DNA of 64,000 nucleotides from the NCBI GenBank assembly GCA_003650815.1, contig QMSB01000001.1, positions 13,374-77,373 of the forward strand, read 5' to 3'. The position numbers and the translations under genes are program-made. This stretch comes from Thermoprotei archaeon. Its GTDB lineage: Archaea; Thermoproteota; Thermoprotei; Thermofilales; B15-G2. The number at the start of each line of letters is the position of its first letter. Within the stretch, counting starts at the first letter, position 1. Shown here one piece after another: positions 12,499 through 47,256 of the stretch. A model generated the notes under the pieces. The model was not told the origin of the DNA. It saw only the letters and a list, made by a program, of their open reading frames with translations, and ran no database searches.

Positions 12499-12732
12499 AC
12501 AGCTCAAAGGGTCTACGGTCAAGCTTATTAAAAAATCTTTTGCAATATAAGCGACCATATATAGCCCTTCAAGTACCTAATAACCAGAACTAATCCGCAG
12601 ACCATCAAATAAAAGGTTACATATGTAACAGCCACTCAGTAACCGTAATCAAAAGAGAACAGCGAGTACACACATTTACCACAACAACTCTGGCGCCGAA
12701 GTGGCGGAAGAGTATTTAAGGTTTTCGTAAAC

Positions 12733-17800: not shown

Positions 17801-19362
17801 ATGTGTATCCAGTGAAGCCAGCCTATAAGGGTATTTTAATAGAGTCTCCTGAGTTTACTCCTCTTGAAGAGAGCGTAGTTTATGTTGCTAGAGGTCTTTT
17901 CACGGACGCGAAGGTGTGTGAGAGGATATGGGCTTATCCGGAGCTCAGTGAGGGCGCGGAGAGCACGTTTACTTTATTTGCTAAAGGCAAGGTGGTGTAC
18001 CTTAAGGCGATTATAGGAGTTTCTGTAAATGAGAAATATGCTTTAGCGAAGCATATGATTGAGAAGGCTTGGGTCGGCGGCGACTGGTTCGACTACGACT
18101 ACGAGTACTCGTGTATTGTTCCGCGGAGCATTAAAGAGGGCTTAAACATAGAAATAGGTGATGCAGTGCTGCTTAACGGTCTTAGATTTATAGTTAAGGG
18201 AGTTTTCGACGACAAGCTTCTGAGCAGTGAGGAGCCGCTTGATTTAGACGGCTATAGCTCCTTTAGACCTCTTTTCAGGGAGGAACTTCAGGCGCTTCAG
18301 ACGCTTGATCCTGAGGTGAGGATTTCTTGGAGCAATATTGTTTTGATTCCAGTAGGTATAGCTAAAAGTTTTCCAGGGGCTTATTTAGCGTCAGTAGCTG
18401 TGGTCACTAAGGCTCAGGATAGCGAAATAGAGGCTAAGGCCAGGGAAGTTTACACTTGTTTAGATAACTTGATTGTACACGCTGGATTAAGTGATAAAGT
18501 AGAGGTTTACGCTAAGGCGTATGCTCAAGTGGTCAGCGGGTTCTCTATGATAGTTCCACTCATTATAATAGGCGGCTTAGTAATACTGACAACTATACTC
18601 GGCAATACTTATGAAAGGATGAGGGAAGCTGGTATACTCAGCGCCTTAGGTTTATCTCCAATACATGTCTCGGGAATGTTCTTTGCTGAAAACGTTGTTT
18701 ATGCTTTAGTAGGAGCGTCTATAGGCTATGCTCTAGGACTAGTAGGAGCGAGGGTGTTTGCAGCATATAATATCTTGCCAGAGTATGTTGGAGTGAACTA
18801 TACTTCAACAAGCGTGATATTCTCTATAGGTGTTGTGATGATAATGGTCTTATCGTCGTCTCTGTATCCGTTCTATAAGGTATCTAAGCTGGTTACACCG
18901 AGCCTTGAGAGGAGGTGGAAGCCGCCCACAAAGCCTAAGGGCGACAAGTGGGAGATTTTGCTGCCGTTCACTTACCTTGACTTCAACGAAGTTCTAGGAC
19001 TGGTATACTATCTCTCAGAAGTCTATAGGGAGCACACTATCGAGAGGGCTGGCGCATATACTGTAGTTGAGCACAGAATGTTTAAAGAAGAGGAGAGGGC
19101 TGGAATAGAGTCTATTATATGGCTACCGCCTTACGAGCTTAACGTTAAGCAGAAGTCTCTGTTAGTTCTTTATAGGAGTAAGACTGAAGGAAAGTACATG
19201 ACGACACTTGTCTTAGAGAGGATAAGTGGACCCTACGTTAACTGGGTCAACTCCAACTTAGGCTACATAGACGAGCTCAGGAAGCAGTTTCTCACATGGA
19301 GGCTCCTGAGGCCTGAGGAGAGGCGTAAGTATATAGAGAAGGCTTTGTCTGCTCTACGGTGA
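14887..19362 (+). CDS. Fusion protein: signal peptide, M28/PA peptidase-like ectodomain (catalytic residues apparently lost), TM bundle, FtsX/MacB-type permease, cytoplasmic tail (module A)
   Basis: 1491 aa. Signal peptide: MSRRCLAVFVLLLMISAPLFVSVAA. M28 motifs: LAHYDS and PGADEACGISLLLELAR. A PA-like insert: GRLVYAGKG...GAIVLLD...GAKAVIV. FtsX TM1: RRRKLRTSLTLFTVIVVTFSLVSL. MacB-PCD-like domain: IGDAVLLNGLRFIVKGVFDD. FtsX core: ERMREAGILSALGLSPIHVSGMFFAENVVYALVGASIGYALG. Confidence 0.85.
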   Translation: MSRRCLAVFVLLLMISAPLFVSVAAENQESLVDMSRVVKHLKFFASLKSRFVGTEGYYKAASYIERYFREELGLEVKRHEFRVLVPLEDKTTISVGGSEYSLYAIYPNLVAPSKAPPEGIRGRLVYAGKGTLREFSGIDVEGAIVLLDIDGCEKWVNAMKLGAKAVIVLGNREVDRLHLESSLTIAAPVLFPRFYAEGEVALELLKKAREGAEAVIYGGHVWREVTGVNLVAVVKGEKYPGKVVYVLAHYDSFSYVPSLAPGADEACGISLLLELARVLKEEGPAMTVYFVAVGSRWQGLAGARYFVEDYLFSEDIGTKVYPYLAIGIDISTGTNKVSFAVTGYMYAMAHSTLYDKLLSQMFLFSRKVVKEFSREYSSVYSRIESRELKDVVGLTLGSWSAGYVMPYVLDTEPFNVAGLPAFSFITLFDIRGFWLTPFDTLEKVNLENLRDQSEFIAYYLRKLLVEGSPQDIYRGSWKDLKPMRKKEGVAGAYFGYDRLVVEVVKYDPTTPRLYRPVPGAIVVVHKVTGWYSKPAAYNKYNMFAWILAKANESGVAFIVGVPWEQAGCGDTYVEAYKVDEDTGRIVFAPDEGSYGAGTYPHTVMVKGDLQRSRTVIFECATMVVPDIYYPYSLQKNIYLTPFKAPTNPIPYASYDTKVSVDVLRAEAFNPLMSYGWAYDPLTSTLILFVPPETSFVAVVKFMGQAFIGAIICNSTREEPLGEGFTLREVGEVRVLSMSPVVFARELTSITEPRYRIAYAFKILDPALIDYYTLAREFIEESGRYIEAKDYTRAYYKSILAWCYSLKAYERSRDVYLDSAFSITFALLIILPSIVLIEKLLGRLRGFSRLTILVSVGVVFFVILWMLHPGFSIIGSTPALVTGTIVLVLVAPVLVLVISQASFGVSEIRKTQIGLHFLERSRLEMIVSALGIGVEHMRRRKLRTSLTLFTVIVVTFSLVSLTSVTPLVIVKPNVYPVKPAYKGILIESPEFTPLEESVVYVARGLFTDAKVCERIWAYPELSEGAESTFTLFAKGKVVYLKAIIGVSVNEKYALAKHMIEKAWVGGDWFDYDYEYSCIVPRSIKEGLNIEIGDAVLLNGLRFIVKGVFDDKLLSSEEPLDLDGYSSFRPLFREELQALQTLDPEVRISWSNIVLIPVGIAKSFPGAYLASVAVVTKAQDSEIEAKAREVYTCLDNLIVHAGLSDKVEVYAKAYAQVVSGFSMIVPLIIIGGLVILTTILGNTYERMREAGILSALGLSPIHVSGMFFAENVVYALVGASIGYALGLVGARVFAAYNILPEYVGVNYTSTSVIFSIGVVMIMVLSSSLYPFYKVSKLVTPSLERRWKPPTKPKGDKWEILLPFTYLDFNEVLGLVYYLSEVYREHTIERAGAYTVVEHRMFKEEERAGIESIIWLPPYELNVKQKSLLVLYRSKTEGKYMTTLVLERISGPYVNWVNSNLGYIDELRKQFLTWRLLRPEERRKYIEKALSALR

Positions 19363-32551: not shown

Positions 32552-35500
32552 ATGAGCAGAAAGTTCGCTGTTCTTGCTCTGATAATACTTTTAGCTTTTT
32601 CCCAGGTAGAGCTTTCGTTAGCTAGCAGTAAACTAGACTATAGAAAGCTAAAGAGATTTCTATCTTTAATAGACTTTGAAGAAGTAGTAAAACATACAGA
32701 ATTTTTTGCTAAATGCAGGTCTAGGGTTCCAGGATACAGAGGCTATTACAGTGCTGTAAGCTATATTACAGAGTATTTTAAAAAGCTCGGGATAAGTCAC
32801 ATTTTAGAGAACTTTAGTGTGACTGCACCTTTTGAAGAGAAGGCTTACATAAAAGTTATTGAAACAGGCGAGATCATAGAAGCACACGCTCTCTGGCCAA
32901 ATATGATAGTTCCACCTAATTTTAATGGAACAGGAAAGCTTGTTTACGGGGGAAAAGGTAGGCTTTTGGAATATAGTGGTAGTGAAGTTGAGGGATCTAT
33001 TGTTCTCCTAGACTTTAACTGTAGATGGTACTGGATAAATGCTTTCTCCCTAGGAGCGAAGGCTGTAATCTTTATAGAAAATGAGAGTACTCTGAGACAT
33101 GATGCCTGGCTCAAAGTATTTTACATGCCGGCACACTTTCCCCGCCTTTATGTTTCTAAGAAAGACGGCTTAAAGTTGATAAAATACGCTAAAAACAACT
33201 ATAGAGTTGAAGTACACTGCAACATGCGCTGGGAGGAAGTTGAAGCTACTAATATTATAGTGACTATACCGGGAAGCGATACCCTCTTGTCAAGAGAAGC
33301 TGTGTGTATTATTGCTCACTTAGACTCTTTATCACCAGTACCAGCAGTTGCTCCAGGAGCTACAGAAGCCTACAACCTAGCTTTAGTTCTCGAATTAGTG
33401 AAAGCCTTAGTGGAGTTTAAGCCTAAGAGGACAGTAGTATTTCTCATAACAGGGGCTCACGGACTGGCTTTAGCAGGAGCTCGCGAATTTGTCTCGGCTC
33501 ACTTTAATGAATTAGGCACAAGGGTAAGGCTAGCCATTGAGCTAGATATCGACTGGACGGGAAAAGAGCTAGCAGCTCAGTACTACGGTCTTTTCTATAG
33601 CTTAGTGAGCTTTGTCCCAGGCTATGAGTCTAGGTTTAAGTGGATCAGAGACCGAGTACTCGAGTATTTATCTCTCATAAAAGAGATTACGGGAGAGAAT
33701 AGTGTAGTATACGATACTTTAGCTCTCACTTACTTTTACTACGAGCCTGTGCCATGTTTTCTCGACTGTGAAGTCTTTACTTTAGCGGGAATCCCAGCTT
33801 TTGCTTTTAGAACCTTCTACACTTTCAGACCCTACTTGTATACTCCCTATGATACTCTAGAGAAAGCCGATCTTTCTTCAGCGAAAATGCAGGCAATGAC
33901 TGCGCTCCTACTAATATGCTGTTTCTTAGAGGATTCAGACACTATGCCCTCTTCTAACCCCGTCACAGCTGGAGTTGGCTACGGCTTTTCTTATGTTCGT
34001 GGAAGAGTTTATCGGTACAATAGAACTAAGGGATGGTTTAAGCCAGTAAGCGCTATTGTAGCTTTACCCATGTGGCCTTATAACTTAGGGATTCTCACAG
34101 ACTTTAACGGAAGCTTCATAGTTAAAGGAGCTAGATACAGTGGATACTACTGGTTTTTAGGCTTTAAGCTGAGCAAAGAGGGATTAGTAGAAGCCGCAAA
34201 TGAGTACGGAGGACTAGGCCCTGCTCTTCCAATGCTCTTCGGAGTGAGCGTATATAAAGATGTATCTGAAGTCAACTTGAGGATTACTGACTGCGGAGGA
34301 TTAATTATCATAAATGCTTATGATCCCAGATTCTTCGTCCCCGGCTATCTCTCTTACTCTGTTCTAAATGCTACTCATCACACAGCTTTGATTAGCTGGG
34401 GACCGCAATACTGGTACTGGTATTCTCAAACAATTTTACTACCTGCTGGTACTAGGGTCGAAGTATTGGTTAAAAGAGGACTAGATGTTGTAGCTATAAT
34501 AAATAATGCTTCAGCCGAGAGCCCCCTCGGAACAGGATATCTTGTTAAGAAGGGTAGACAGATACTCATCAAGAACTTTCCTCTTGAAGCCGCGGAAACT
34601 TTCTCAATAATACTGGATCATAGAATAAATAGCACAGGTGTATCTAGCCGCAGAGTTAAAGACTATCATTTGGAAGCTAAGAGACTGGTAGGAAGAGCCA
34701 AAAAGCTATTAAAGAGTAGAGAATATGGGCTCGCCTATGCTTCTATGATGAGAGCGTGGGCAATGGAAGCACACGCCTATAACTCATTCCATTTCCTGCT
34801 GGGAGATACTTGCTTTGCTCTGATAATCCTAGTAATTGTCTTATTTATAGCATCTATGAGGCTTAAGCTCTTCTTCTCTGAGAAAAACAATACAGTAGCT
34901 TTCATCTTCTTCACAGCATCTATGCTCATTGTTGTATTATCTCACCCTGCTCTCAGGGCCTGCTCTATTGGAGTATTTATAGTACCATCAGCCAGCGTCC
35001 TGTTAATAGTAGTTGTAGTAGTAATCTCTCTCATAAGAACTTTCATGGAGCATGTAATGAAAGTAAAGAGAAGAACTCCAAGATTTATTTCGAAGAGAGC
35101 TTCAGCTGAAATAGCCATCTTTTCTCTCATCCTAGCTTTTAGCATATTTTATTCAGTAAATCTAACATATGTTACTCACTTGAGCGAGGCTTACGTAGGC
35201 AAAGGTTCCTATAGAGGTATCATGTTGAGAACATTTCCTTGGAAATGTCTCTGTGAAGCTGAGTATGATGCTTTTAGGAGTGAGGTTAAGAGTCTTGGCG
35301 GATACTCTTCGATGCGTATATGGATATATCCTCATTATGGAGAAGTGAGAGTGAGAAATACTACCATAGTTAAGGCTTTTCTAGGAGTTAGTGTTGATGA
35401 AGCTAAAATTTCTGGTATTAATTCTTTTATAGTTAAAGGAAGATGGTTTAGTAGCGACTATGCCAGGGAGTGTCTGATTAGTCGTTTTCTATCAAAATTC

Positions 35501-36511
35501 TTAAACGCCTCAGTGGGAGACAAAGTAGTGATTTATGGAGTTAAGCTAAAGGTTGTAGGAGTATTTGATGAGGATAGACTGGCTTCTTTCACGGATCTAG
35601 ATGGAGAGCCTATTACTCCGCGAGACATAATGATTCCTCGTAGCGAAGAAATACCAGTACATGTCTCGCCGAAATATGTTGTTATTATTCCGGCGGAACT
35701 AGCAAGGGAAATGGGAGGAGATATATATAGCATCGCGGTTGCTTTCGAAGATGATACTCTTATACTAAGGTATGCGAGAAACCTAGCCTATATTCTCGAT
35801 GGAGCATATGTCTACTGCTCGATTGAGGGAAAAGTTCTTATTATAGCTGCACACAACGCCTTAGGCTTCGTCGTCTACAGGCCTAAAGACCTTCTACTGG
35901 CTTTTCTCTCGGCTACTGCCATAGTAGCAGTAGCTTTTCTAGAGAAGAAGTTCTTTTTCTCAGACGCTCTTCAGGCGAGCTTTGTTGGTGGAGTAGCAGG
36001 ATATGTAATACACTTAGCGCTAGGAAAGCTAGGATTATGTGAGCTAAGCGTTGTAACTGTGGCTCCTCTGTTGAGTTCTATCTCAGGATTTTTGCCGGTT
36101 CTCGTAGCTAAAGGGCTAGCTGAAAAAGTGAAGGAGCTGAAGGAAGTCGCTATTGAGGCTGTTCCGAGAGAATATAAAATTAGAGTAGAGGTTGCTCCAT
36201 CTAAGGCGCTTGAGTTTATTGAGGAGGTAGCCAGAGAAGTCTTTACAGAGGAGCATGGGTATTTAATTAAGCGATGGAGGAGAACAGGGGAGTCTTTCTC
36301 TGTACTAGTGCAAATACTGCCGCGAGAGCTGTTTCTCTTCTATAGAATCACGTTTGAGCCAATAATTGTTGATGGAGAAACTTTCATATTAATTGAAGTA
36401 GTTGGAAGAGGACTTGGAGCTAGAAGAATTCGCAGGAGAATAATTCCCGATATGATAAAGTTGCTAGAGGCTAAAATAGAGGAAAAGCTGGGTGGGAGCC
36501 TTGAAGAATAG
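32552..36511 (+). CDS. Fusion protein paralog: signal peptide, M28/PA-like ectodomain (degenerate), TM bundle, decayed FtsX-like unit, tail (module B)
   Basis: 1319 aa. It is collinear by eye with 14887-19362: VVKHTEFFAKCRSRVPGYRGYYSAVSYITEYF vs VVKHLKFFASLKSRFVGTEGYYKAASYIERYF; AHLDS; GAKAVIFIEN; VGDKVVIYGVKLKVVGVFDED...LDGEPITP. The ERxREIGxLxALG motif of FtsX is absent. Confidence 0.85.
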   Translation: MSRKFAVLALIILLAFSQVELSLASSKLDYRKLKRFLSLIDFEEVVKHTEFFAKCRSRVPGYRGYYSAVSYITEYFKKLGISHILENFSVTAPFEEKAYIKVIETGEIIEAHALWPNMIVPPNFNGTGKLVYGGKGRLLEYSGSEVEGSIVLLDFNCRWYWINAFSLGAKAVIFIENESTLRHDAWLKVFYMPAHFPRLYVSKKDGLKLIKYAKNNYRVEVHCNMRWEEVEATNIIVTIPGSDTLLSREAVCIIAHLDSLSPVPAVAPGATEAYNLALVLELVKALVEFKPKRTVVFLITGAHGLALAGAREFVSAHFNELGTRVRLAIELDIDWTGKELAAQYYGLFYSLVSFVPGYESRFKWIRDRVLEYLSLIKEITGENSVVYDTLALTYFYYEPVPCFLDCEVFTLAGIPAFAFRTFYTFRPYLYTPYDTLEKADLSSAKMQAMTALLLICCFLEDSDTMPSSNPVTAGVGYGFSYVRGRVYRYNRTKGWFKPVSAIVALPMWPYNLGILTDFNGSFIVKGARYSGYYWFLGFKLSKEGLVEAANEYGGLGPALPMLFGVSVYKDVSEVNLRITDCGGLIIINAYDPRFFVPGYLSYSVLNATHHTALISWGPQYWYWYSQTILLPAGTRVEVLVKRGLDVVAIINNASAESPLGTGYLVKKGRQILIKNFPLEAAETFSIILDHRINSTGVSSRRVKDYHLEAKRLVGRAKKLLKSREYGLAYASMMRAWAMEAHAYNSFHFLLGDTCFALIILVIVLFIASMRLKLFFSEKNNTVAFIFFTASMLIVVLSHPALRACSIGVFIVPSASVLLIVVVVVISLIRTFMEHVMKVKRRTPRFISKRASAEIAIFSLILAFSIFYSVNLTYVTHLSEAYVGKGSYRGIMLRTFPWKCLCEAEYDAFRSEVKSLGGYSSMRIWIYPHYGEVRVRNTTIVKAFLGVSVDEAKISGINSFIVKGRWFSSDYARECLISRFLSKFLNASVGDKVVIYGVKLKVVGVFDEDRLASFTDLDGEPITPRDIMIPRSEEIPVHVSPKYVVIIPAELAREMGGDIYSIAVAFEDDTLILRYARNLAYILDGAYVYCSIEGKVLIIAAHNALGFVVYRPKDLLLAFLSATAIVAVAFLEKKFFFSDALQASFVGGVAGYVIHLALGKLGLCELSVVTVAPLLSSISGFLPVLVAKGLAEKVKELKEVAIEAVPREYKIRVEVAPSKALEFIEEVAREVFTEEHGYLIKRWRRTGESFSVLVQILPRELFLFYRITFEPIIVDGETFILIEVVGRGLGARRIRRRIIPDMIKLLEAKIEEKLGGSLEE

Positions 36512-38333
36512 CTTAGTGATTTTAACTGTAGTCGCCTTATCAGTCACTATAATTCCTCTTATCCTATACTCTAGTCTGATAGGAGCTGGCTTTACTCAAG
36601 TAAACTCGTGGCTAGTAGTGATAGCTGTATCCGAAATAGCTCTATGGCTAGGAAGAAAGCTTAAGCGGGGAGAAGTATTTCTCATACAAGTTCTCTTACC
36701 TCTGACTATAAGCCAGGCGCTCTTATTCTACAACACTCTCTACTACAGCTACATAGTGTGGAGCCCCTTTGTCAAAGAGTTCGGGTTCAAGGAAACAGCT
36801 TGGTGGTTTCCCTCCACTTCACTTCTTCAAGTAAAACTCAGAACTTTCTTTCAGTCTGACTACTCGCCAATAGTGACGATATTTGTGTTATCGTCTCTAC
36901 TCAACGTTGTATCAGGACTTGCTTTAGGCTATATGGGCTATGAGCTACTAGTAGTCAGAGAAAAACTAGATTTCCCAATGCAAGTTGCTGTAGCTGAGGG
37001 ACTTTCAGCTGTTGTAGGAGAAGACCCCGCTAAAGTCAAAATGTTTTCTATTTCCGCTATACTCGGTATAGTTTACGCGTCTCTGGCTACTCTAATACCT
37101 ATTTTAGCTATGGGGCAGGTTCCAGCTCTCCTTCCAATATTCACTTATGACTTAACGCTCGTGCTCGAGCATTTCATGCCAGGAGCAGCACTTGGAGTAG
37201 ACTTTAACTTACTGACATTTTCTTCTGGACTAGTAATACCTTTGAGAAGAGCCGCTCTCCTGTTGGCTGGATCTATACTTGTATACGTTATTGGAAATCA
37301 CTTACTAGTAGTCGCAAGTTACTGGACTCAAAGTCCTATAGGTAGGTGGATGCCAGGCTCTAATCTCTTTTACTGCATTAGATGGTCGTCTTTTAACTTC
37401 TGGACTAGCTTCAATATGGGTGTAGCTCTTTCAGCAGCTATTCTCCCCCTGCTTGTCAAAAGAGAGACAGTTAAGGAAGTATTCTTTACAATTACTCGAG
37501 CAGCTAAAAGAGAGACAGGCTACGCGTCAAGAGCCCTACTAGTGTTTCTGGGGGTTTCTGCTATTAACATACTGGTGCTAACCGTAGCTCTGCCTAATTT
37601 TCCCATATACATACTGGCAGTCTTCATGATACTATGGCCCCTGGTCTCTACTCTAGTCTCAGCGAGCTCTATAGGCTCCTCGGTCTACGGCTTTAACATA
37701 CCTTATGTTAAAGAAGGTCTGATAATTGCATCTAGATACAAAGGTCTTGATGTGTGGATCTACCCACTAACACTAGATCCTGGAGGAGCTAAATACACCG
37801 CGAACTTCAAGACGGCGGTCCTGTGTGGAGTTAAGCCGAGAGATTACATAAAATTCTCTCTGTTAGCGGTTTCAGTAGGCATTATCTTAAGTCTATTTTT
37901 CACGTCTTTACTCTGGTACATGCACCCAATACCTTCGTGGAGTTATCCTGCAACTGCGTATAACTGGCAAATATCTACCTATAACTTCCTACTGAATATC
38001 TCGTGGATGAGCAGAGGTGAGATCATAAGACCTCACATAATACTTCTCGGAGCTTTAGCTGGAGGAGCTGCCTATATAGTCTCGTATTTCTTTAATAAAG
38101 AGCCTCTATTCTTTTCTCTCGTAGCAGGGCTTTCACTAGCTCCTTCAGCAGCCCTAACAACTTTTATAGGGTCTCTAGTTAGTTCTCTGCTGATGGCTAG
38201 AGTGTTTAAGGAAAAGTGGGGGGAGTACGTAGGGAGCGTTACTTCAGGGCTTACTGCAGGATGGGGAGCAGTTAGTTCTTTTGCCTCAATAATAGCATTT
38301 CTTCAGAGGGGAACATGGGTTCTCCCGTACTAA
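36492..38333 (+). CDS. Polytopic membrane protein, possibly OPT-like (module B, partner 1)
   Basis: 613 aa. The GTG start overlaps the upstream gene by 20 nt. It carries the REKLDFPM motif and appears paralogous to 19359-21275. Confidence 0.8.
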   Translation: MGALKNSLVILTVVALSVTIIPLILYSSLIGAGFTQVNSWLVVIAVSEIALWLGRKLKRGEVFLIQVLLPLTISQALLFYNTLYYSYIVWSPFVKEFGFKETAWWFPSTSLLQVKLRTFFQSDYSPIVTIFVLSSLLNVVSGLALGYMGYELLVVREKLDFPMQVAVAEGLSAVVGEDPAKVKMFSISAILGIVYASLATLIPILAMGQVPALLPIFTYDLTLVLEHFMPGAALGVDFNLLTFSSGLVIPLRRAALLLAGSILVYVIGNHLLVVASYWTQSPIGRWMPGSNLFYCIRWSSFNFWTSFNMGVALSAAILPLLVKRETVKEVFFTITRAAKRETGYASRALLVFLGVSAINILVLTVALPNFPIYILAVFMILWPLVSTLVSASSIGSSVYGFNIPYVKEGLIIASRYKGLDVWIYPLTLDPGGAKYTANFKTAVLCGVKPRDYIKFSLLAVSVGIILSLFFTSLLWYMHPIPSWSYPATAYNWQISTYNFLLNISWMSRGEIIRPHIILLGALAGGAAYIVSYFFNKEPLFFSLVAGLSLAPSAALTTFIGSLVSSLLMARVFKEKWGEYVGSVTSGLTAGWGAVSSFASIIAFLQRGTWVLPY

Positions 38334-40300
38334 AGACAATACTAAGGTTCATTAGCCGCAAGGATCTAAGGGATTACGCGTTAGCTATATTTATATCAGT
38401 GATATTCTCATCTCTGTCGACTAGAATAGTATGTATTAGAAGTACTGGTTTTGGACTAATGTTACCCATATACTTGAATTCCATAGCAATTTTTCTAATA
38501 CTATTATTGGCATACTTCTCTGATGTTCTTTCGAAAGCGGGTTTCAGACCTAGTATCGAAGAAATAGCCTACACGTACCTAGTAGTATATATTTCAACTT
38601 CTGTAGGTGGATTATGGCTTCTTGCAGGGTCTATAGGAAGAGCTCTTTTTCTAGCCTATCAAGAGCCATTTAAGACTATCACTGAGGGTCTCAGGCCGCC
38701 TTTTTGGGCTCCTCCAGCAAAGTGTATAGCTCAGATTCTAACTTCTTCTATTCAGGTAGACTGGTTTCTCTGGATTCTTCCTCTACTCTACTGGTTTATA
38801 CTTTCCCTTACTGCATGTATTCTCTCTATTTCAGCAGCACGTGTTCTAGCACCTATGCTTATAGATCTAGAGGAGATGCCGTTTCCAACAATAGTTTTAT
38901 ACAGAGGTATAAGAGAGTCTATTAAAGAGGAGGATTTTTTACGAAAAGTATTCTTATTTTCTACAGCAATATCATTTTTAATAAACTTACCGACATTAAT
39001 AAGACTAGCTGTACCATGGTTTCCCCTACTACCGTTTCCTCAGGCGTACGGCTATACTATGACTATAGATCTCACAGCTATCAGAGAGCTGAGAGTTTTT
39101 ACTATGCCTAACGCCGTAATAGTACTCTCAGTTAATCCCCTCTGGATAGCTGCCTGTTATCTTTTACCATTAGATACATTGCTTACATGGTGGATAGTCT
39201 ACGTAGTTCTAAACGTAGTCTACCCGCTGATAGCAGTCTACTTAGGACTACTTCCTCCAATGACACCACCTTTCGGCGCGCAGAAAATATGGGTCTTCCA
39301 GAACTTTAAGTATGGTCCTTTAAAACCGTATATTGCTTTCACAGTAGGAGGACTTGCAGCCCTCGGAGTGACAGCTTTCATTAAGCTTCTTATTCTCACT
39401 AAACGGACTGCTAAGAAGTTCTCCTATCTTCTCGTCGCCTCGTGTATAGCGCTAGCAGTCTTCTCCTCTATGAACTACTTAACTCTAAGGTCTCTCTCTT
39501 TATCGCTAGCAACTTCTTTTATAACTTTAACAATGTACCTTGGAGCTCTCTCCCTGCTAGGCGAGAGCTTCATTATACCTGTTATGCTGTCTAGACCGAT
39601 GAATGCTGCTCTAGGCCAGTATCTGAGCGAGTATCTTGCACTTAGCTCTCCAGAGGCTTTCTCACCTCAACACATACTAGGAGTTCTCTTACTAGGCGAA
39701 GCCTCCTACTCTCTTCTTTCCCCAGGAGTGGCGCTTCTCGAGAGTTTCGCTCTCTTAAGGACCAGACCAGCTGTCAAAAAGAGTCCTAGGGAAATTAGAA
39801 GGACTAGAAATAGGCTCGCGAAGCTAGCTATTTTAGTTGTGGCTCTTTCACTCTTCTCTTCCTACTATACAATGATCCTCGTGGCTCATGAGTACAGCAT
39901 AGCTAATTTACCGGGATTGAAGACAATAATATTCGAGTATGGAAAAGCAGAGGCAGATTTTCTAATGAACGCTGCTAAAATCATGGTTGATGAAAATTGG
40001 TGGATAAGCTTCACTATAGGAGCAGTCTCAATAGCTCTGGTCTCTCTTCTACGTCTTAAACTACTAGTATTTCCTCTGTGTCCAGTGGGTCTAGTCTTAT
40101 CAGCTTCCGAGCTATCTCTCTACGGAATGTGGTTCTCTGCTCTCATAGCATACACATTAAAGAGAACAACTCTAGCTCTAGGAGGACTGAAATTATATAT
40201 GAGAGAAGGGCGGGCTATAGCGGCTGGTATCATAGTAGGTTATTCGCTAAGCTACATAGTCGCCTCAGCATTAAGCTATGCTCTCTACTTTATCCACTAA
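38315..40300 (+). CDS. Polytopic membrane protein, possibly OPT-like (module B, partner 2)
   Basis: 661 aa, overlapping the upstream gene by 19 nt. It carries the LEEMPFPT motif and is highly hydrophobic throughout. Confidence 0.78.
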   Translation: MGSPVLKTILRFISRKDLRDYALAIFISVIFSSLSTRIVCIRSTGFGLMLPIYLNSIAIFLILLLAYFSDVLSKAGFRPSIEEIAYTYLVVYISTSVGGLWLLAGSIGRALFLAYQEPFKTITEGLRPPFWAPPAKCIAQILTSSIQVDWFLWILPLLYWFILSLTACILSISAARVLAPMLIDLEEMPFPTIVLYRGIRESIKEEDFLRKVFLFSTAISFLINLPTLIRLAVPWFPLLPFPQAYGYTMTIDLTAIRELRVFTMPNAVIVLSVNPLWIAACYLLPLDTLLTWWIVYVVLNVVYPLIAVYLGLLPPMTPPFGAQKIWVFQNFKYGPLKPYIAFTVGGLAALGVTAFIKLLILTKRTAKKFSYLLVASCIALAVFSSMNYLTLRSLSLSLATSFITLTMYLGALSLLGESFIIPVMLSRPMNAALGQYLSEYLALSSPEAFSPQHILGVLLLGEASYSLLSPGVALLESFALLRTRPAVKKSPREIRRTRNRLAKLAILVVALSLFSSYYTMILVAHEYSIANLPGLKTIIFEYGKAEADFLMNAAKIMVDENWWISFTIGAVSIALVSLLRLKLLVFPLCPVGLVLSASELSLYGMWFSALIAYTLKRTTLALGGLKLYMREGRAIAAGIIVGYSLSYIVASALSYALYFIH

Positions 40301-40380: not shown

Positions 40381-40698
40381 GTGGAAATTCCACAAAAAAT
40401 AGCATCTAGGTTACAGCAGCACGTTAAAAGCGAAGTAATAAATATATGCAAAAAAGCTGGGTTAACGAATGTTGCTTACACTAAAGTAGGTATAGTAGAA
40501 AGAGAAGGAAAATTCTATCTCTATGTTAAATTAAAGCTTTTAGGAAAGATGCCCTACGAGGTCTTAGACAGTATAGCTAAATTGATGAGAGAGAAGTACG
40601 CTAGAAAAATTATGATAGACTCTCCTCATTTACACGCCATAAGGCTGTCTGGAGAAATTAGAAAAGAGGTTTTTAAAGAGTTTAAAAAGCGTGTATAG
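40381..40698 (+). CDS. Hypothetical protein
   Basis: 105 aa with a GTG start. It is Lys/Glu-rich with no motif I recognise. Confidence 0.4.
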   Translation: MEIPQKIASRLQQHVKSEVINICKKAGLTNVAYTKVGIVEREGKFYLYVKLKLLGKMPYEVLDSIAKLMREKYARKIMIDSPHLHAIRLSGEIRKEVFKEFKKRV

Positions 40699-40850: not shown

Positions 40851-41149
40851 TTAAATCCCACGCAGTTTAACAAACCTACTAAATATTTTTTCCTATTCTC
40901 TTCATGTAACTATTGCTCTCTAAGCGACTACTTAACTAATACTAGAGCTTTACTCTATCTATAACTTTTAAATAATACCATGAAGTCGTATCTTCATGCT
41001 CAGTAAATGCGTCTGGAGTTAAGTAAAAAAGCAAGCAGCTCAGGATTGTTCATGTAGGTTCACTTCTTAATTACTAGAGATTTCGGCTAATCATACTTCG
41101 AGACAGGCAAGCTTATTACCTAACAGAAACTATTCTATAGGGACACTTA

Positions 41150-43462
41150 ATGAGATTAGAAAGATGTTCAATAGCCTTGTTGCTGCTCATAGTTCTCTCA
41201 CAATTGCTTCTCTGCTTTCCTCAGTCGAGAAAAATAAAGATAGTCTTTATAGATGAGGAGAGCGGAAATCCTGTTAACGGTGTATTCGTAGTTAAAAGAG
41301 GAAGTAAGCTAACTTATGTTAAGACAGGGAGTAAGGGTGAGATAACTGTAGATGAGGGAGCTATAATATATGGTCCAAGAGTATCGAAAAAACCTTACTT
41401 TCCCGTTGAAATCATAGCTATAAAGAATGCTACTATAAAACTAAAACGGGCGTATTTTGTTATACTTAAAAGGTACTTAGCAGTACTTGATCCGGTAAAA
41501 TCTAGTAGAATAGTTATTCCCGTAGGTGTCGTGGAATTTAAAATAAATAACATGTCATTTGGACATGGGAGTTCTGTGAGATACTTAGGGCTCAACTCTT
41601 CTACTGGGCTTGCTCCTCTTAGAGGAGGCTTAATGTCAGTAAAAGTCAAAGACTTTTTCATTAACATAAGTTTACCGAGCTTAGATTGGGGAGAGACTTA
41701 CTTCCTTGATCTTCGTGAAGTGAGTTTAAAGTACAACGAGCTCGCTTTTAATAAGAGCATAAGCTTCATAGAGAAGAAGATAAGTGAATTAGAAAAAGAC
41801 GGCATATACCTAGGTTTCTGCAAAGTATACTTGGAAGAAGTAAAGAAGTCTTTAGCGGAAGCATTACAGAAAAAAGACATAGAGGATATTTTGCTCGAAT
41901 ACGAGAAGAGCTACCTATTGTATACTAGCATTAAAGAACGCTTAAGCTTTTTCGAGGAGAAAAGCAATGAAGTGGTTCCACTGATGTCAATACTAATAGC
42001 TGTTTTAAGCTACTTGATTGCTTCACTATTTTTTGATAAATCATCTAAGAAACTTGTTTTCTACTCGATGCTCTATTATACATTAATATTAAGCCTATTC
42101 ACAGTATATCCTTTCCTAAGAGAAGGAAATCCGTATTTCACAGTATCACCGATGTTCGTTTACTTATTCACATTGATTCCAGCAGTGCTCTCAGATAAAA
42201 TTCCAGACTATTATACACAAGAAGGATTTTCCTTGCTCTCTGGAGCTACTGCATCTCTTTCAATGATATTAAGGAGTGCAAGAAGGAGAAGACTAAGAAC
42301 AGGTTTAACACTCTTTACAGTAGCACTAGTAGCCTTTTCTGTACACACCTTAAACTTAATGACTACGATGTACTGGTCGTTTGAAAAAGAGTTGAAATAC
42401 TCTGTCTCAGTAAAACCTAATACAGTTCTAGTAGTTAAGCCAAAGTACGGAGACTATCCCTACTCTCCTCTTTCAATAGTTTTCATTAGATTGCTTTCAG
42501 AAATAGGTCATACAGAAGCTCTCTGCATTAAAAGAGAGAGTTCTCCTACACTGAAGGAGATAAGGCTTGAGTACAGGGGAAGAGAGACATATGTGTCAGG
42601 CGTTATAAGCTATACTAAAGGAGTCACTAAATTTATTCCATTAGAAAGCATTGTAATGAAAGGACGGCTTCCTGAAGAGGGCCTAGAAGTAATGATAAGC
42701 AATAACATCGCAAACCTACTGAGCATCAATGTAGATAAAAACATTACTATAGGCAAATACACAGCGAAAGTAGTAGGTATTTTTAGGGGGAAAAGTCTAG
42801 ATGATCTAAGAGATCTAGATGGAATGAGCATTACACCCACAGTAGTCATTCGCGAAGGAGGAGCGAAGACTGTTGAAAGGCTGTCTGGTGACTCTATAAT
42901 TATATGTTCTGATGAACTAGCTTCTCTACTCAAAATTCCTCGCTACAAAGTTTACATAAAGCCTAAAGAGAATCCCTTCTTTTACGCAGAGAAAGTAGCT
43001 TTCATATCAGATTCATGCACATATGTGTTTTACAAAAACACTGTGAAGTACTATACGGTAGCACCAGTAATCATAGTTAAAGGAGAAAGCCTAGTAGTTC
43101 CACTAATTATAGCTATACTTACAGTTTTTGTGTCAATTATGGAAAATGTCTATGAGAGGAGAAAAGAAATAGAAATACTATCGTCTTTAGGGCTAAATCC
43201 ATCACATATAGCATACCTATTCTCCCTTGAGGGCATAGTGCTCGGCTACGTGGGCTCTGGTATAGGTCTCTTATCAGGATTTATAGCATTTAAGTTACTT
43301 AATATGAGCAGTGTAGTAATTCCAGTAGACTTTAAGCTGTCAATCTACGAAATACTGTTTACAGTATTTCTAGCAGTTGGGGTCTCTTTACTAGCTGCTC
43401 TCCCACCAGCCCTTAAAGCATCTACATTAGTTACTCCTAGTTTAGAAAGAAGATGGAAGTAG
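41150..43462 (+). CDS. Signal peptide, Ig-like (CarboxypepD_reg-like) head, TM bundle, FtsX/MacB-type permease (module C); ends at an in-frame TAG
   Basis: 770 aa. Head: KIKIVFIDEESGNPVNGVFVVKRGSKLTYVKTGSKGEITV. FtsX TM1: RRRRLRTGLTLFTVALVAFSV. PCD-like domain: NITIGKYTAKVVGIFRGKSLDDLRDLDGMSITPT. FtsX core: ERRKEIEILSSLGLNPSHIAYLFSLEGIVLGYVGSGIGLLSG. It ends in VTPSLERRWK, the same motif found internally in 14887-19362. Confidence 0.85.
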   Translation: MRLERCSIALLLLIVLSQLLLCFPQSRKIKIVFIDEESGNPVNGVFVVKRGSKLTYVKTGSKGEITVDEGAIIYGPRVSKKPYFPVEIIAIKNATIKLKRAYFVILKRYLAVLDPVKSSRIVIPVGVVEFKINNMSFGHGSSVRYLGLNSSTGLAPLRGGLMSVKVKDFFINISLPSLDWGETYFLDLREVSLKYNELAFNKSISFIEKKISELEKDGIYLGFCKVYLEEVKKSLAEALQKKDIEDILLEYEKSYLLYTSIKERLSFFEEKSNEVVPLMSILIAVLSYLIASLFFDKSSKKLVFYSMLYYTLILSLFTVYPFLREGNPYFTVSPMFVYLFTLIPAVLSDKIPDYYTQEGFSLLSGATASLSMILRSARRRRLRTGLTLFTVALVAFSVHTLNLMTTMYWSFEKELKYSVSVKPNTVLVVKPKYGDYPYSPLSIVFIRLLSEIGHTEALCIKRESSPTLKEIRLEYRGRETYVSGVISYTKGVTKFIPLESIVMKGRLPEEGLEVMISNNIANLLSINVDKNITIGKYTAKVVGIFRGKSLDDLRDLDGMSITPTVVIREGGAKTVERLSGDSIIICSDELASLLKIPRYKVYIKPKENPFFYAEKVAFISDSCTYVFYKNTVKYYTVAPVIIVKGESLVVPLIIAILTVFVSIMENVYERRKEIEILSSLGLNPSHIAYLFSLEGIVLGYVGSGIGLLSGFIAFKLLNMSSVVIPVDFKLSIYEILFTVFLAVGVSLLAALPPALKASTLVTPSLERRWK

Positions 43463-43480
43463 AAGGAAACTAAAGAGTTT

Positions 43481-44296
43481 ATGGAGGAAGGAATTACAGA
43501 AAGGCTACCTGTCAGAATACCTTTAGGTAAAAGCAGAGACTTTGTAGACTTCATACTAGGAAGATTTAGAGAATTGAGCTTCGGGCTTACACAAAAAGTA
43601 GAAGTAATGTCTATTGAAGAACTTGGAGACAGAGAATACAGGATATCATTCAAATACTACAGGGGAAGCGACATAAGCTACCAGGCATGTTTCACTGAAA
43701 ATACCCTGGAGGTCTACAAGGTCTCAGAAGACACTTATGGTGTGAAAGTGACATCTAGGCCTGTGACGCAGCATAGTAAGCTTGGTCTATACTATGTACA
43801 TGAAACACTATCCTTCTTAAGAAAAATAGCACTTGAGTGGAGTTCAAGGGCTCTTAGAATAGTAGTAGCGCTAGGCGAAAATCCCTCAACACTATATACT
43901 GTTATAAAACACCTAGACCCCTATGAAGTAATAGTTGTTACTGAAGCAAGAAACTTAAAAACCGTAGAATACGTTAAGAAAGCATTAATGGAAGAAAAGA
44001 GGAGAACTCCCGCTATAAAAACTTACTTAATATCAAGTCTAAAAGACATAGAAAAAGTACTGTCGGAGCTAAGCTATTATATAAGAGAGTCTCAATACAC
44101 AGTAATCAGCTATGATTCAGGGCTTGCTGGAGTACTACTATCCATAGCGTCTAGTGCAGTCCGCAAAAAAATACTTCTATTAACTGATAAGCGTAGCTTA
44201 CGTGAAAAAATAGCGTATCCACTTAAGGAAGCAGAGATCTCCGAAATATCGCCTCTCGAAATAGATAAGATGCTAGAAAAAATTAAGACTGAATAA
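43481..44296 (+). CDS. Detached cytoplasmic tail domain of the module-C permease plus a Rossmann-like (Csa3-N/CARF-like?) domain
   Basis: 271 aa, in the same reading frame as 41150-43462 and separated from it by TAG plus 6 codons. The N-terminal ~120 aa correspond in position to the tail of 14887-19362. The C-terminal half (RIVVALGENPSTLYTVIKHL..EVIVV...VISYDSGLAGVLL) has an alternating beta/alpha pattern. Confidence 0.7.
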   Translation: MEEGITERLPVRIPLGKSRDFVDFILGRFRELSFGLTQKVEVMSIEELGDREYRISFKYYRGSDISYQACFTENTLEVYKVSEDTYGVKVTSRPVTQHSKLGLYYVHETLSFLRKIALEWSSRALRIVVALGENPSTLYTVIKHLDPYEVIVVTEARNLKTVEYVKKALMEEKRRTPAIKTYLISSLKDIEKVLSELSYYIRESQYTVISYDSGLAGVLLSIASSAVRKKILLLTDKRSLREKIAYPLKEAEISEISPLEIDKMLEKIKTE

Positions 44297-44314
44297 CTTT
44301 TATAACAAGGCATT

Positions 44315-44650
44315 GTGTATAGTAATGGTAATATGAGTAGGGAGCTCACTTATATGAAGTTTAAAAGCCTAGAGGACTTGGTAAAACTAATAGTAACTAG
44401 CCAGAGACCACTACTTTTTCACAGCAAGTACGGGGAAAACAAGCATATTTACTATATCTACGGAACAGCTGGTCAGAGGCTAATAATATACTATACGGTA
44501 CTAGAAAAACCAATAGAAAAGAAATATATTTACTATAGCGTACTTGAAGGAAAAATCTCTTTCGGCGACGAGCTTAACAAGGACACAAGGTTCGTCAATA
44601 TACCAGTAATAGAGGTCGAAGATGAAAACATATTAAAGGAAATACTGTAA
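44315..44650 (+). CDS. Hypothetical protein
   Basis: 111 aa. Alternative starts are 44333 and 44354 (MKFKSLEDL). No motif recognised. Confidence 0.45.
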   Translation: MYSNGNMSRELTYMKFKSLEDLVKLIVTSQRPLLFHSKYGENKHIYYIYGTAGQRLIIYYTVLEKPIEKKYIYYSVLEGKISFGDELNKDTRFVNIPVIEVEDENILKEIL

Positions 44651-44654
44651 TTAA

Positions 44655-44715
44655 CACTGAAGTGATGAATATGCAGCCCTCTGAGCGGTGAGGACGTTAC
44701 TAGGGACTGATACCT
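44655..44715 (+). ncRNA. C/D-box sRNA (2'-O-methylation guide)
   Basis: The architecture is canonical. C box GTGATGA (44662-68); 12-nt guide ATATGCAGCCCT; D' CTGA (44681-84); 4-nt spacer; C' TGAGGA (44689-94); 12-nt guide CGTTACTAGGGA; D CTGA (44707-10); then a CTTTTTC T-tract. It is intergenic. Confidence 0.75.
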
Positions 44716-44995: not shown

Positions 44996-46045
44996 GTGAA
45001 GCCTTTAAAACTAGGTCTTATTGGAGCCGGAGTAGGAGCAGACTTTGTCGCTAGGGCGGTCTCAGTAATAAAGGAGGAAAATATAGTAGAGCTAGTAGCC
45101 GTAGCTAGTTCACATCCTGAGAGAGCTAAGGCTTTTGCAGAAAAACACGGGATTCCTAATTGGTATTCTGATTACAAAGAGATGTTGAGGAAAGCTGGTA
45201 TAGAGGCTGTAGCGATATGTACTCCTCACTACCTTCACTTCCCTATGGCTATAGATGCTATTGAAGAGGAGCTCCATGTTCTAGTAGACAAACCCATGGC
45301 TATCAGCATCAGAGAAGCAGATGAAATGATCAGAAGGTCGGAGAAGAAGGGAGTAAAACTAGGAGTTATTCTCCAGAGCCGCTTTGACCCCAAGTTTAGG
45401 AAAATGAAAGAACTAATAGACTCCGGTGAACTAGGCAAAATAATTCTCGGCGAAGCTGTAGTCAAATGGCATCGTACTCAAGAATATTACGATAAAAGTG
45501 TTTGGCGTGGACGATGGGCTACAGAAGGCGGAGGAGCTCTGATAAATCAAGCAATACATACAATCGACCTATTAATATGGATGCTCGGTGAACCAGACTA
45601 TCTATGGGCACAAATAGACACAGTAGCACACAACATAGAGGTAGAGGACTTAGCCACAGCAATAATTAGGTTCAAGAATGGAGCACTAGGGGTAATTGAA
45701 GGAAGCACTGCTACTTACCCAGGTTTCCCGACTCGCTTAGAGGTTCATGGAACTGAGGGAGCTATATTAATTGAAGGCGAGACAGTTAAATTTGCTGAAG
45801 CTAAAGGCAAGAAACTAAAAATAGAGGAAGAAAAGACAGGGAAGTTGGCTTCATGGGCTAGACCAGAGCTCGTACCTCCTGAAAACCACGCTAGACTAAT
45901 AAAAGACTTCGCTCTAGCAGTAAGAGAAGACCGTAAACCTTACATAGATGGCTATGAAGGCAAGAGGGCCGTCGAAGTAATATTAGCAATATACGCTTCA
46001 GGAAAGAGAAACGAGCTAATAAGATTCCCCTACAAAGACTACTAA
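44996..46045 (+). CDS. Gfo/Idh/MocA-family NAD(P)-dependent oxidoreductase
   Basis: 349 aa with a GTG start. The N-terminal Rossmann motif is LKLGLIGAGVGADFVARA, followed by CTPHYLH and LVDKPMA. Confidence 0.85.
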   Translation: MKPLKLGLIGAGVGADFVARAVSVIKEENIVELVAVASSHPERAKAFAEKHGIPNWYSDYKEMLRKAGIEAVAICTPHYLHFPMAIDAIEEELHVLVDKPMAISIREADEMIRRSEKKGVKLGVILQSRFDPKFRKMKELIDSGELGKIILGEAVVKWHRTQEYYDKSVWRGRWATEGGGALINQAIHTIDLLIWMLGEPDYLWAQIDTVAHNIEVEDLATAIIRFKNGALGVIEGSTATYPGFPTRLEVHGTEGAILIEGETVKFAEAKGKKLKIEEEKTGKLASWARPELVPPENHARLIKDFALAVREDRKPYIDGYEGKRAVEVILAIYASGKRNELIRFPYKDY

Positions 46046-46591: not shown

Positions 46592-46653
46592 TTTCCTCGT
46601 AATAACTTATGAAAGCGTAGAATTTAAACTTATTGAATTTAATATGTATACTG

Positions 46654-47256
46654 ATGATGATTCCTAAGGAATGGCTTAGGCGTAAGAAGGAACGTTTAAA
46701 GCGAATAGAAAGAGATAAGAGTATAGGTTATTTTGATGAAAAAATAGATGAGTTGGTTAACTTAATAAATGCAGTACCCGACTTAAGTACCACCAGTAGT
46801 TGTAGCGGTAGAATAATTTTCTATGAGTCTGAGGGTCCCTGGGGCTTTGGCCACGGAGAAATTATAGCTAAATTCCACGACATTATTACAGAGGAGCTGT
46901 TAGAGAATGTTCTGAAAAAGCCTGTAAAGAAAATTCTATGGGCATCTGCTCAAGGACCAATAATTCATGTCGCCTGCAGGGACATATATTCAGCGAGCTG
47001 GCTCAATAAGCTGGCTAGAAGAGTAGGATTTAAGCATGGTGGAATAATTTCGGTAGAAGATGAAGTAGTACTGGAGTTAAGAGCAGTGGATAGAGTAGAT
47101 ATTCCTCTTAAATATCGTGAAGCTCTATTAGTGAACGATCTGAGTGTGATAGCTGATATCTTGAACAGTGTTCTAAAAAGGGGATGGGAGAAGATAGAGA
47201 AATTGTCTAGTCTTTTATCAAATATAGATGAGTATGAGTTTTTAAGAGAGAAGTAG
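46654..47256 (+). CDS. taw3: tRNA wyosine-derivative biosynthesis methyltransferase Taw3 (TYW3 family)
   Basis: The TYW3 signature TTSSCSGRI is present. I use the ATG at 46654 (MMIPKEW). The ORF track starts at a TTG at 46633. Confidence 0.8.
   Translation: MMIPKEWLRRKKERLKRIERDKSIGYFDEKIDELVNLINAVPDLSTTSSCSGRIIFYESEGPWGFGHGEIIAKFHDIITEELLENVLKKPVKKILWASAQGPIIHVACRDIYSASWLNKLARRVGFKHGGIISVEDEVVLELRAVDRVDIPLKYREALLVNDLSVIADILNSVLKRGWEKIEKLSSLLSNIDEYEFLREK

Follow-up and report, generated by a model that had tools for sequence, protein, structure and literature searches.

A CARF_m8-family gene split by one base in a Thermoprotei archaeon assembly encodes a headless FtsX-type membrane protein

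Three genes in which an FtsX-type membrane unit is fused to further domains lie in a 64,000-nt stretch of DNA from a Thermoprotei archaeon (contig QMSB01000001.1, positions 13,374 to 77,373), which we call the window and to whose positions the coordinates below refer. The third of these genes, copy C, raises the question of what kind of protein is built on this membrane unit when the M28/PA part carried by the other two, copies A and B, is missing. The original prediction, made from a 770-codon open reading frame (ORF) at 41150-43462, described copy C as a head-swapped, minimal version of the other copies, followed by a detached tail ORF. The overall explanation that we favor, and consider probable, is that copy C and its tail form one gene of the CARF_m8 family, and that its product is a headless form of the common chassis which, more tentatively, may act as a ligand-responsive transmembrane switch.

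A single gene of 1048 codons

The copy C ORF lies on the plus strand, as do all features of the gene described below, starts with ATG, and encodes 770 amino acids (aa). Two further ORFs follow on the same strand, one of 271 aa (43481-44296) and one of 111 aa (44315-44650). The 271-aa tail ORF is in frame with copy C and is separated from it by the TAG at 43460-43462 and six sense codons. Two orthologs among the database proteins, P0004 (1066 aa, 51% identity) and P0005 (1053 aa, 49% identity), span copy C and the tail in one chain; both have leucine at the position of the TAG and isoleucine where the tail ORF has its ATG. Two further database proteins from the 90% cluster to which the window's own protein belongs, P0016 (represented by four contigs) and P0022, are uninterrupted at 1048 aa and match both window ORFs exactly, except for leucine in place of the TAG. 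The uninterrupted 1048-aa form was found on at least five contigs. A second genome of the same genus (G001, 99% complete, compared to 85% for the window's own genome, G000) carries a continuous 1053-aa gene that is syntenic with copy C.

We compared contigs from four public sequencing runs (X1, X3, X4, and X6) to the window over positions 41000-44700. Position 43461 was T rather than A in all three runs that covered it: X1 and X3, which are possible sources of this DNA, and X4, which is independent. The codon in these assemblies is TTG (Leu). In the X1 contig, base 43461 was the sole difference from the window over 3701 bp. Run X6 had no contig over 43320-43479 and was silent on this base.

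Because full-length forms are present among the database proteins, the gene is continuous in the orthologs and in G001, and the covering runs have T at position 43461, we conclude that 41150-44296 is a single natural gene of 1048 codons, encoding a polytopic membrane protein. The TAG does not mark a natural gene boundary: it differs from TTG by one base and is peculiar to this metagenome-assembled genome, through misassembly or as a variant carried by a minority. The supposedly detached tail ORF continues the gene that begins with copy C. In the window's genome, TAG serves as a regular stop codon that closes 409 of 1224 long frames, and we found no hint of its reassignment: a paralog on contig C119, in which another TAG had been flagged, has its normal stop at that codon.

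The alternative is a TAG that is real in the strain, which would mean either a two-gene split, into a 770-aa membrane part and a restarted 271-aa soluble tail, or a decaying pseudogene. Several points weigh in its favor and against the single gene. The deposited assembly carries the TAG and is annotated with a 770 + 271 aa pair; run X2, also a possible source, was left out of the comparison; and contigs drop rare variants, so that a nonsense allele in part of the population is possible. An ATG stands six codons past the TAG, and the X6 contigs break over the TAG site. In another assembly of a near-identical gene, an independent frameshift near codon 243 has resulted in separate calls of 259 and 801 aa (P0017 and P0003). 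The gene is thus disrupted differently in two assemblies, with at least five contigs intact. We nevertheless regard a real TAG as quite improbable. TTG was found in every covering run, including two possible sources. Apart from the TAG, both halves of the gene are intact and agree fully with the full-length form. Moreover, of the 47 places in 40 genomes that match the tail, just two have internal stops.

Membership in the CARF_m8 family

Hydropathy analysis of the 1048-residue protein gave a signal-like segment at residues 6-24 and seven transmembrane (TM) helices at residues 275-293, 302-320, 330-348, 386-404, 646-664, approximately 696-714, and 735-753, a topology that puts the tail in the cytoplasm. 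The tail had no matches in Pfam or NCBIfam. Its structure, predicted from 36 sequences (predicted local distance difference test, pLDDT, 92; predicted TM-score, pTM, 0.70), contains two domains.

The first (tail residues 5-123, 43493-43849) is a KA1-like α+β domain with a β-α-β4-α order of elements. VIA-align matched it to KA1, AMPK-CTD, and AP-2 appendage domains with Z-scores of 9-10, an arrangement that is common. In the C119 paralog, the same domain is fused directly past the last TM helix (TM4) and the protein ends there. It is also common to copies A and B and other paralogs, and falls inside the profile match to copy A-type proteins described in the next section. This relation between the tail and the other copies emerged only via the C119 paralog and profiles, as the tail had no significant BLASTP match to either copy A or copy B (E 0.11 and 0.039).

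The second domain (tail residues 124-271, 43850-44293) has a Rossmann-like CARF fold. When tail residues 124-260 were compared using VIA-align, the top eight rows were all CARF proteins: the Sso2081 ring nuclease (Z 12.5, root-mean-square deviation (rmsd) 2.6, 134 residues aligned), Csa3 (12.3), two Can2 structures (12.0), VC1899 (11.9), Cad1 (10.8), Card1 (10.4), and Cam1 (10.3). The best non-CARF Rossmann match was MurG (Z 8.6). A Foldseek search with the tail model independently returned Cam1 (E 5e-5), Sso2081, and Csa3. At the sequence level, PADLOC profiles matched tail residues ~121-253 (CARF2, E 7e-7; CARF1, E 2e-5; CARF6, E 0.0036; Csx1, E 0.018). Pfam CARF models gave no match to the tail alignment at E ≤ 1, and a whole-family profile searched against PDB sequences reached CARF chains at E 0.25-1.1 only, which is not significant.

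The full gene (41150-44296) could be assigned to a catalogued family. The PADLOC-DB v2 profile PDLC01991, "CARF_m8--CARF_LolE_TM", matched P0016 at E 6.9e-270, with residues 203-1028 aligned to profile positions 3-809 of 810, and matched the tail alone at E 2.2e-77. The match runs from a three-helix bundle in front of the membrane helices to the CARF domain and keeps the order of FtsX unit, α+β domain, and CARF domain. Copy C is thus a member of the catalogued but uncharacterized CARF_m8 family, which combines an FtsX/LolE-type permease with a C-terminal CARF domain. It fits this family fully and nothing sets it apart; it is a member without a distal enzyme-like head, interrupted by a TAG in this assembly. 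The CARF_m8 profile names presumably follow the scheme in which Makarova et al. (2020) classified CARF domains. That work is reference 39 of PMC9704534. Literature searches for CARF with FtsX, for CARF with MacB, and for CARF_m8 retrieved no experimental work on the family; the combination of CARF and MacB yielded unrelated papers only.

Searching exhaustively with the tail (271 aa) in HMMER, we found 35 representative proteins at E ≤ 1e-3; in all but a few short ones, the tail is C-terminal. FtsX was present in 30 of the 36 tail-carrying proteins; the other six were the window's tail ORF, used as the query, and five proteins of at most 284 aa. The tail was detected in 40 of the 401 genomes of the phylum that were searched and in 16 of 161 genera. 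Ten of the 36 proteins, 1715-2091 aa long, carry GH2 domains, and three to four carry CarboxypepD_reg-type domains. The GH2-headed relatives match a sister profile, PDLC01990, "CARF_m8--CARF_Beta-galactosidase_LolE_TM".

The chassis shared with copies A and B

Copy A (14887-19362, 1491 aa) has Pfam matches to M28, PA, and FtsX, and copy B (32552-36511, 1319 aa) to M28, PA, and MacB_PCD; both are accompanied by paired OPT-like genes. Copy B gave no Pfam FtsX match, and its last membrane segments look degenerate. In BLASTP, residues 368-770 of copy C aligned to residues 927-1345 of copy A (27% identity, E 2e-27), and the match to copy B covered only the core-domain part of the MacB/FtsX unit (E 2e-8). 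The chassis similarity between the copies, as predicted, held under profile alignment. When 14 C-type proteins were aligned with five A-type proteins (copies A and B and three database relatives) using hhalign, the match had a probability of 100 and an E-value of 1e-57 over 883 columns, with C columns 50-972 on A columns 468-1426. From the extracytoplasmic stalk it runs through the three-helix bundle, three additional TM helices, and the FtsX unit, up to and including the KA1-like domain. Our confidence in it is high for the bundle and everything past it, and moderate for the β region.

The three extra TM helices (residues 275-348, 41972-42193) were recognized as hydropathy peaks and align with the equivalent region of copy A. 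Behind them lies the MacB/FtsX unit (42305-43408), defined by Pfam, hydropathy, and PDB profile matches: TM1 (386-404), an extracytoplasmic core domain (approximately 405-645), and TM2-TM4 (646-753). The full unit claimed for the copy C ORF is present. Pfam FtsX (PF02687) matched residues 650-759 at E 1.4e-15, and MacB_PCD (PF12704) matched residues 387-562 at E 2.6e-5 and 25.0 bits, just under its cut-off of 27. A family profile searched against PDB sequences reached LolF, MacB, LolC, LolE, and YtrF chains at up to E 1e-16. The NCBIfam LolCE and FtsX models scored far under their cut-offs (e.g., 32.6 compared to 362 bits).

The part of copy C outside the membrane begins with an N-terminal hydrophobic segment, likely a signal peptide (residues 1-25, 41150-41224; hydropathy peak at residues 6-24). 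We predicted the structure of residues 26-275 from an alignment of 17 sequences (pLDDT 89.5, pTM 0.79). The model shows two β-sandwiches, at residues 28-98 (41231-41443) and 100-187 (41447-41710), and a three-helix bundle at residues 188-274 (41711-41971) whose helices (model residues 163-191, 197-215, and 219-249) lead into the first TM helix. What had been read as a helical hairpin was thus modeled as a three-helix bundle, and the region of ~170 aa noted after the head does exist, as the second β-sandwich together with this bundle. The bundle had generic helix-bundle matches only.

The prediction of an Ig-like, CarboxypepD_reg-type fold at the N-terminus was borne out by the model and its structure matches. 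VIA-align of model residues 1-80 returned the SusC NTE (Z 6.9, rmsd 2.3, 74 residues aligned), CnaB2 (Z 6.5), domain II of duck carboxypeptidase D (Z 6.0, rmsd 2.0, 70 residues aligned), the transthyretin-like domain of human carboxypeptidase D (Z 5.9), and transthyretin (Z 5.1); such modest Z-scores are expected for a 75-residue domain. A first, wide VIA-align of the ectodomain had been filled by helix bundles, so that the β part was barely tested there. Foldseek with the stalk model returned proteins with tandem β-sandwiches, namely SlaB as the best match (E 2e-5), the C-domain of an A. fulgidus lipase, Gram-positive pilins, and DUF3823; these matches also bear on the second sandwich, whose strands come from the model. 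The copy C head did not match Pfam PF13620 at E ≤ 0.1. However, PF13620 matches were found in five of the 17 aligned relatives (best E 7.1e-10), in the same alignment columns as the copy C head. At the level of fold, the predicted first domain of copy C thus holds as a CarboxypepD_reg-type, transthyretin-like β-sandwich.

This domain does not replace the M28/PA module. In the hhalign match, the first β-sandwich of copy C falls on copy A residues ~497 onward, past the M28/PA module of copy A, and because of this placement, which is of moderate confidence, we conclude that copy C lacks a distal head and has no replacement for it. No Pfam match to M28 or PA was found in copy C. By sequence comparison, then, the copy C "head" appears to be the family's common membrane-proximal stalk, on top of which copies A and B add M28/PA. 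Copy C represents the basal form of the chassis, without the head that the larger M28/PA copies in the window carry, and the term head-swapped does not apply to it. The more general idea of variable outer domains on a constant chassis was borne out by the relatives, which carry M28/PA, GH2, DUF4185/DUF5005, or the CarboxypepD_reg-like stalk only. All three copies thus have the same chassis, which reaches from the Ig-like stalk via the FtsX unit to the KA1-like domain; copy C differs from the other two in having no M28/PA module, in its added CARF domain, and in having no downstream OPT-like genes of its own. The term minimal does not apply either: the real protein is 1048 residues long and ends in a CARF-fold domain, which is absent from copies A and B.

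Many large FtsX-fusion paralogs exist in the genus (in the window's genome, on contigs C5, C14, C18, C119, C124, C139, and C142). Ortholog P0004 had 14 matches in the window's genome and 12 in the second genome.

The guanine plus cytosine (GC) content of the three loci, overall and at third codon positions, was 0.371 and 0.329 for copy C, 0.413 and 0.363 for copy B, and 0.454 and 0.462 for copy A. Copy C is, as had been suspected by eye, more AT-rich than copy A. Yet the genome has a GC content of 0.402, and in 3.1-kb windows across it (mean 0.404, standard deviation 0.024), copy C falls at the 8.6th percentile, whereas copy A reaches the 98.4th. The composition of copy C is unremarkable and copy A is the outlier locus. 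The first ~22 kb of the window are GC-rich as a block. Horizontal acquisition of copy C, considered on account of its low GC content, was ruled out by the 8.6th percentile and by synteny within the genus.

Genomic neighborhood and possible function

The gene order around copy C is kept in the second genome of the genus: copy B, an OPT gene (613 aa), a DUF6785/6784 gene (661 aa), a 105-aa ORF, copy C, a 111-aa ORF, and a Gfo/Idh/MocA oxidoreductase, which lies at 44996-46045 in the window. No OPT-like gene was found downstream of copy C, in line with the original prediction. However, the two OPT-like/DUF6785 genes that follow copy B (36492-40300) lie directly 5' of copy C on the same strand, 850 bp away, so that a lack of OPT-like partners is no more than a possibility. 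The 105-aa ORF (40381-40698, plus strand), between the DUF6785 gene and copy C, and the 111-aa ORF (44315-44650, plus strand; likely true start at the methionine of codon 7) have 68% and 76% identity to their syntenic counterparts and are more conserved between the two genomes than copy C (~52%). Neither matched a Pfam or NCBIfam family. Among the loci compared, both were found only in this genus, and the 111-aa ORF was not found in 14 other family loci. Elsewhere in the window, a reverse gyrase (8782-12558) marks a hyperthermophile-type archaeon, and a 207-aa ORF (46633-47256) has matches under the cut-offs to NCBIfam PRK04235-type and Taw3 (tRNA wyosine methyltransferase) models.

Among fourteen loci of family members, we scanned about three neighbors on each side in 12, with a wider scan in two of these; locus L074, from the same genus as L072, was excluded. 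The neighbors were housekeeping genes and, often, genes related to sugars or polyprenols. DUF6785 proteins were found near family members in loci L071 and L075, and BLAST identified a homologous 696-aa gene in L072. In other genera, neighbors included a divergent PMT-type mannosyltransferase, an overlapping BacA gene on the same strand, UbiA prenyltransferases (L066, L068), GalT and an epimerase, as well as Gfo/Idh/MocA, DegT, and GH57 genes; glycan- and polyprenol-related neighbors lie at L071:4468-6021, L068:5055-6032, L067:4080-6047, and L069:5320-9536. The GH2-headed CARF_m8 genes of four genomes have a conserved neighbor of ~770 aa (L064:3821-6112, L065:11419-13749, L066:3768-6095, and L068:11469-13811), always divergently transcribed, with 35-53% mutual identity. 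An OPT-like nature of this neighbor was rejected (hhalign probability 0.2); it had only a weak Pfam match to PTPS_related (E 0.089) and no PDB relative.

What the protein does may be approached through its two best-known parts. MacB-type proteins (MacB, LolCDE, FtsEX) are dimers that pass a cytoplasmic conformational change to extracytoplasmic domains, and CARF domains bind ligands as dimers (Csm6, Csx1, Can2, Cam1). By analogy, we tentatively propose, as a reading with perhaps one chance in three, that copy C is a ligand-operated switch in which a CARF pair sits under an FtsX pair and responds to a ligand other than CRISPR cyclic oligoadenylate. The CARF_m8 protein would dimerize like MacB-type proteins, and its paired CARF domains would bind a small cytoplasmic ligand distinct from the cyclic oligoadenylate of type III CRISPR systems. 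The resulting rearrangement would travel outward, via the KA1-like domain and across the TM helices, to the extracytoplasmic domains, or it would take the reverse course. In this manner, a process at the cell surface could be tied to a signal in the cytoplasm with no dedicated ATPase encoded nearby.

The proposed ligand raises the question of CRISPR. Like Cam1 and other membrane-bound CARF effectors of type III CRISPR systems, copy C joins a cytoplasmic CARF-fold domain to a membrane part, its fold is near those of proteins that bind cyclic tetra-adenylate (cA4), Cam1 among them, and its family profile comes from a database of defense genes. It could therefore be an ancillary effector of a type III CRISPR system, or of another system based on cyclic oligonucleotides, in which cyclic oligoadenylate bound to CARF leads to membrane damage or depolarization as in Cam1. 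The membrane part of Cam1 is a small helical pore. In copy C it is instead a MacB/FtsX module with a large ectodomain, and no Cas10 was found in the genus and no cas neighborhood around the gene. Using the Cas10 models TIGR02577 and TIGR02578, to which control genomes responded, we found no match in either genome of the genus. Cas10-like matches were present in 92 of the 401 genomes of the phylum at E ≤ 1e-5 (63 at E ≤ 1e-8), and among the 40 tail carriers in five, when the lists were compared by eye (G263, G335, and G086 over the cut-off; G123 and G160 weak), leaving 35 without one. In one family, 13 of 17 genomes had the tail and none had Cas10. No cas gene was seen among the housekeeping and sugar-related neighbors scanned in the fourteen loci, and the gene order is kept between both genomes of the genus. 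We consider a CRISPR effector very unlikely.

A second question is what, if anything, powers the module. With the type VII ABC transporters and mechanotransmitters (MacB, LolCDE, FtsEX, YtrEF), copy C shares an FtsX unit of four helices whose extracytoplasmic core domain lies between TM1 and TM2. It differs from them in having no fused or neighboring ABC ATPase, and in adding three TM helices, an N-terminal stalk, and two cytoplasmic C-terminal domains. It could still be a conventional type VII ABC permease subunit, powered in trans by an unlinked LolD/FtsE-like ATPase, with CARF only modulating the ATP-driven cycle. Its FtsX unit is complete, the coupling loop between TM2 and TM3 hardly varies within the family, and the window's genome encodes five LolD-like ATPases at 230 bits or more. 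Each of the five, however, adjoins its own 187-390-aa gene on the same strand, and two of the 14 matches to P0004 in this genome are conventional FtsX permeases beside LolD-like ATPases, compared to five such ATPases in the genome. No LolD-like ATPase was found on the window's contig (83.5 kb) at E ≤ 1e-20. A LolD-type hidden Markov model built from ten ATPases and run on ORFs of at least 120 aa in the window, locus L021, and the 14 family loci gave a single match, in an unrelated ZnuA-type cluster of L067; the window, L021, and 13 of the 14 family loci had none. ABC_tran was not among the 25 families listed for the 36 tail-carrying proteins. Powering in trans appears to us somewhat unlikely, with a chance that is nonetheless substantial.

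Three observations weigh against the proposed switch. The five LolD-like ATPases could act in trans, and the strongly conserved coupling loop fits an ATPase partner equally well. The third concerns the ligand site. The CARF signature consists of a polar residue (Ser or Thr) past strand 1 and a basic residue past strand 4. The CARF domain of this family has a Gly-containing loop past strand 1 and a conserved acidic/Gly loop past strand 4 (D212 in 26 of the 36 sequences), and in these 36 sequences the latter loop has no conserved Lys or Arg. A conserved strand-4 loop without the basic residue fits a different ligand, or none.

The protein might also be a passive anchor, in which the FtsX-type module and stalk only tether and dimerize surface ectodomains and the cytoplasmic domains have no signaling role. 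This would agree with the best Foldseek match of the stalk, the S-layer anchor SlaB with its β-sandwiches, and with the enzyme-like heads that relatives carry on the same base. Copy C itself, however, has no distal head to anchor, the loop at the usual CARF ligand site is conserved, and the tail has been kept in 16 of 161 genera; we judge a mere anchor to be improbable.

For annotation, the two called genes of 770 and 271 aa should be read as one gene of 1048 aa, and the supposedly minimal copy is in fact the one with the extra sensor domain. The family was already catalogued, to which the copy C locus adds only incrementally; because it lacks a bulky head, copy C offers a conveniently small protein for expression and structural studies. 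CARF domains are receivers of CRISPR second messengers, and MacB/FtsX modules are ATP-driven force transmitters. CARF_m8 combines both, but neither a link to Cas10 nor a neighboring ATPase was apparent in the genomes that we examined. On a speculative reading, to which we give little weight, a CARF dimer rather than an ABC ATPase would be the cytoplasmic switch of a MacB-type mechanotransmitter, a non-CRISPR nucleotide-like metabolite would gate motions of the ectodomain, and copy C would be the bare engine beside sisters with glycosidase- or peptidase-like heads, together controlling archaeal cell-surface processing. If the CARF domain does sense another ligand, CARF signaling would extend beyond antiviral defense, and the family would show that a type VII ABC-like scaffold can be driven or gated in a new manner.

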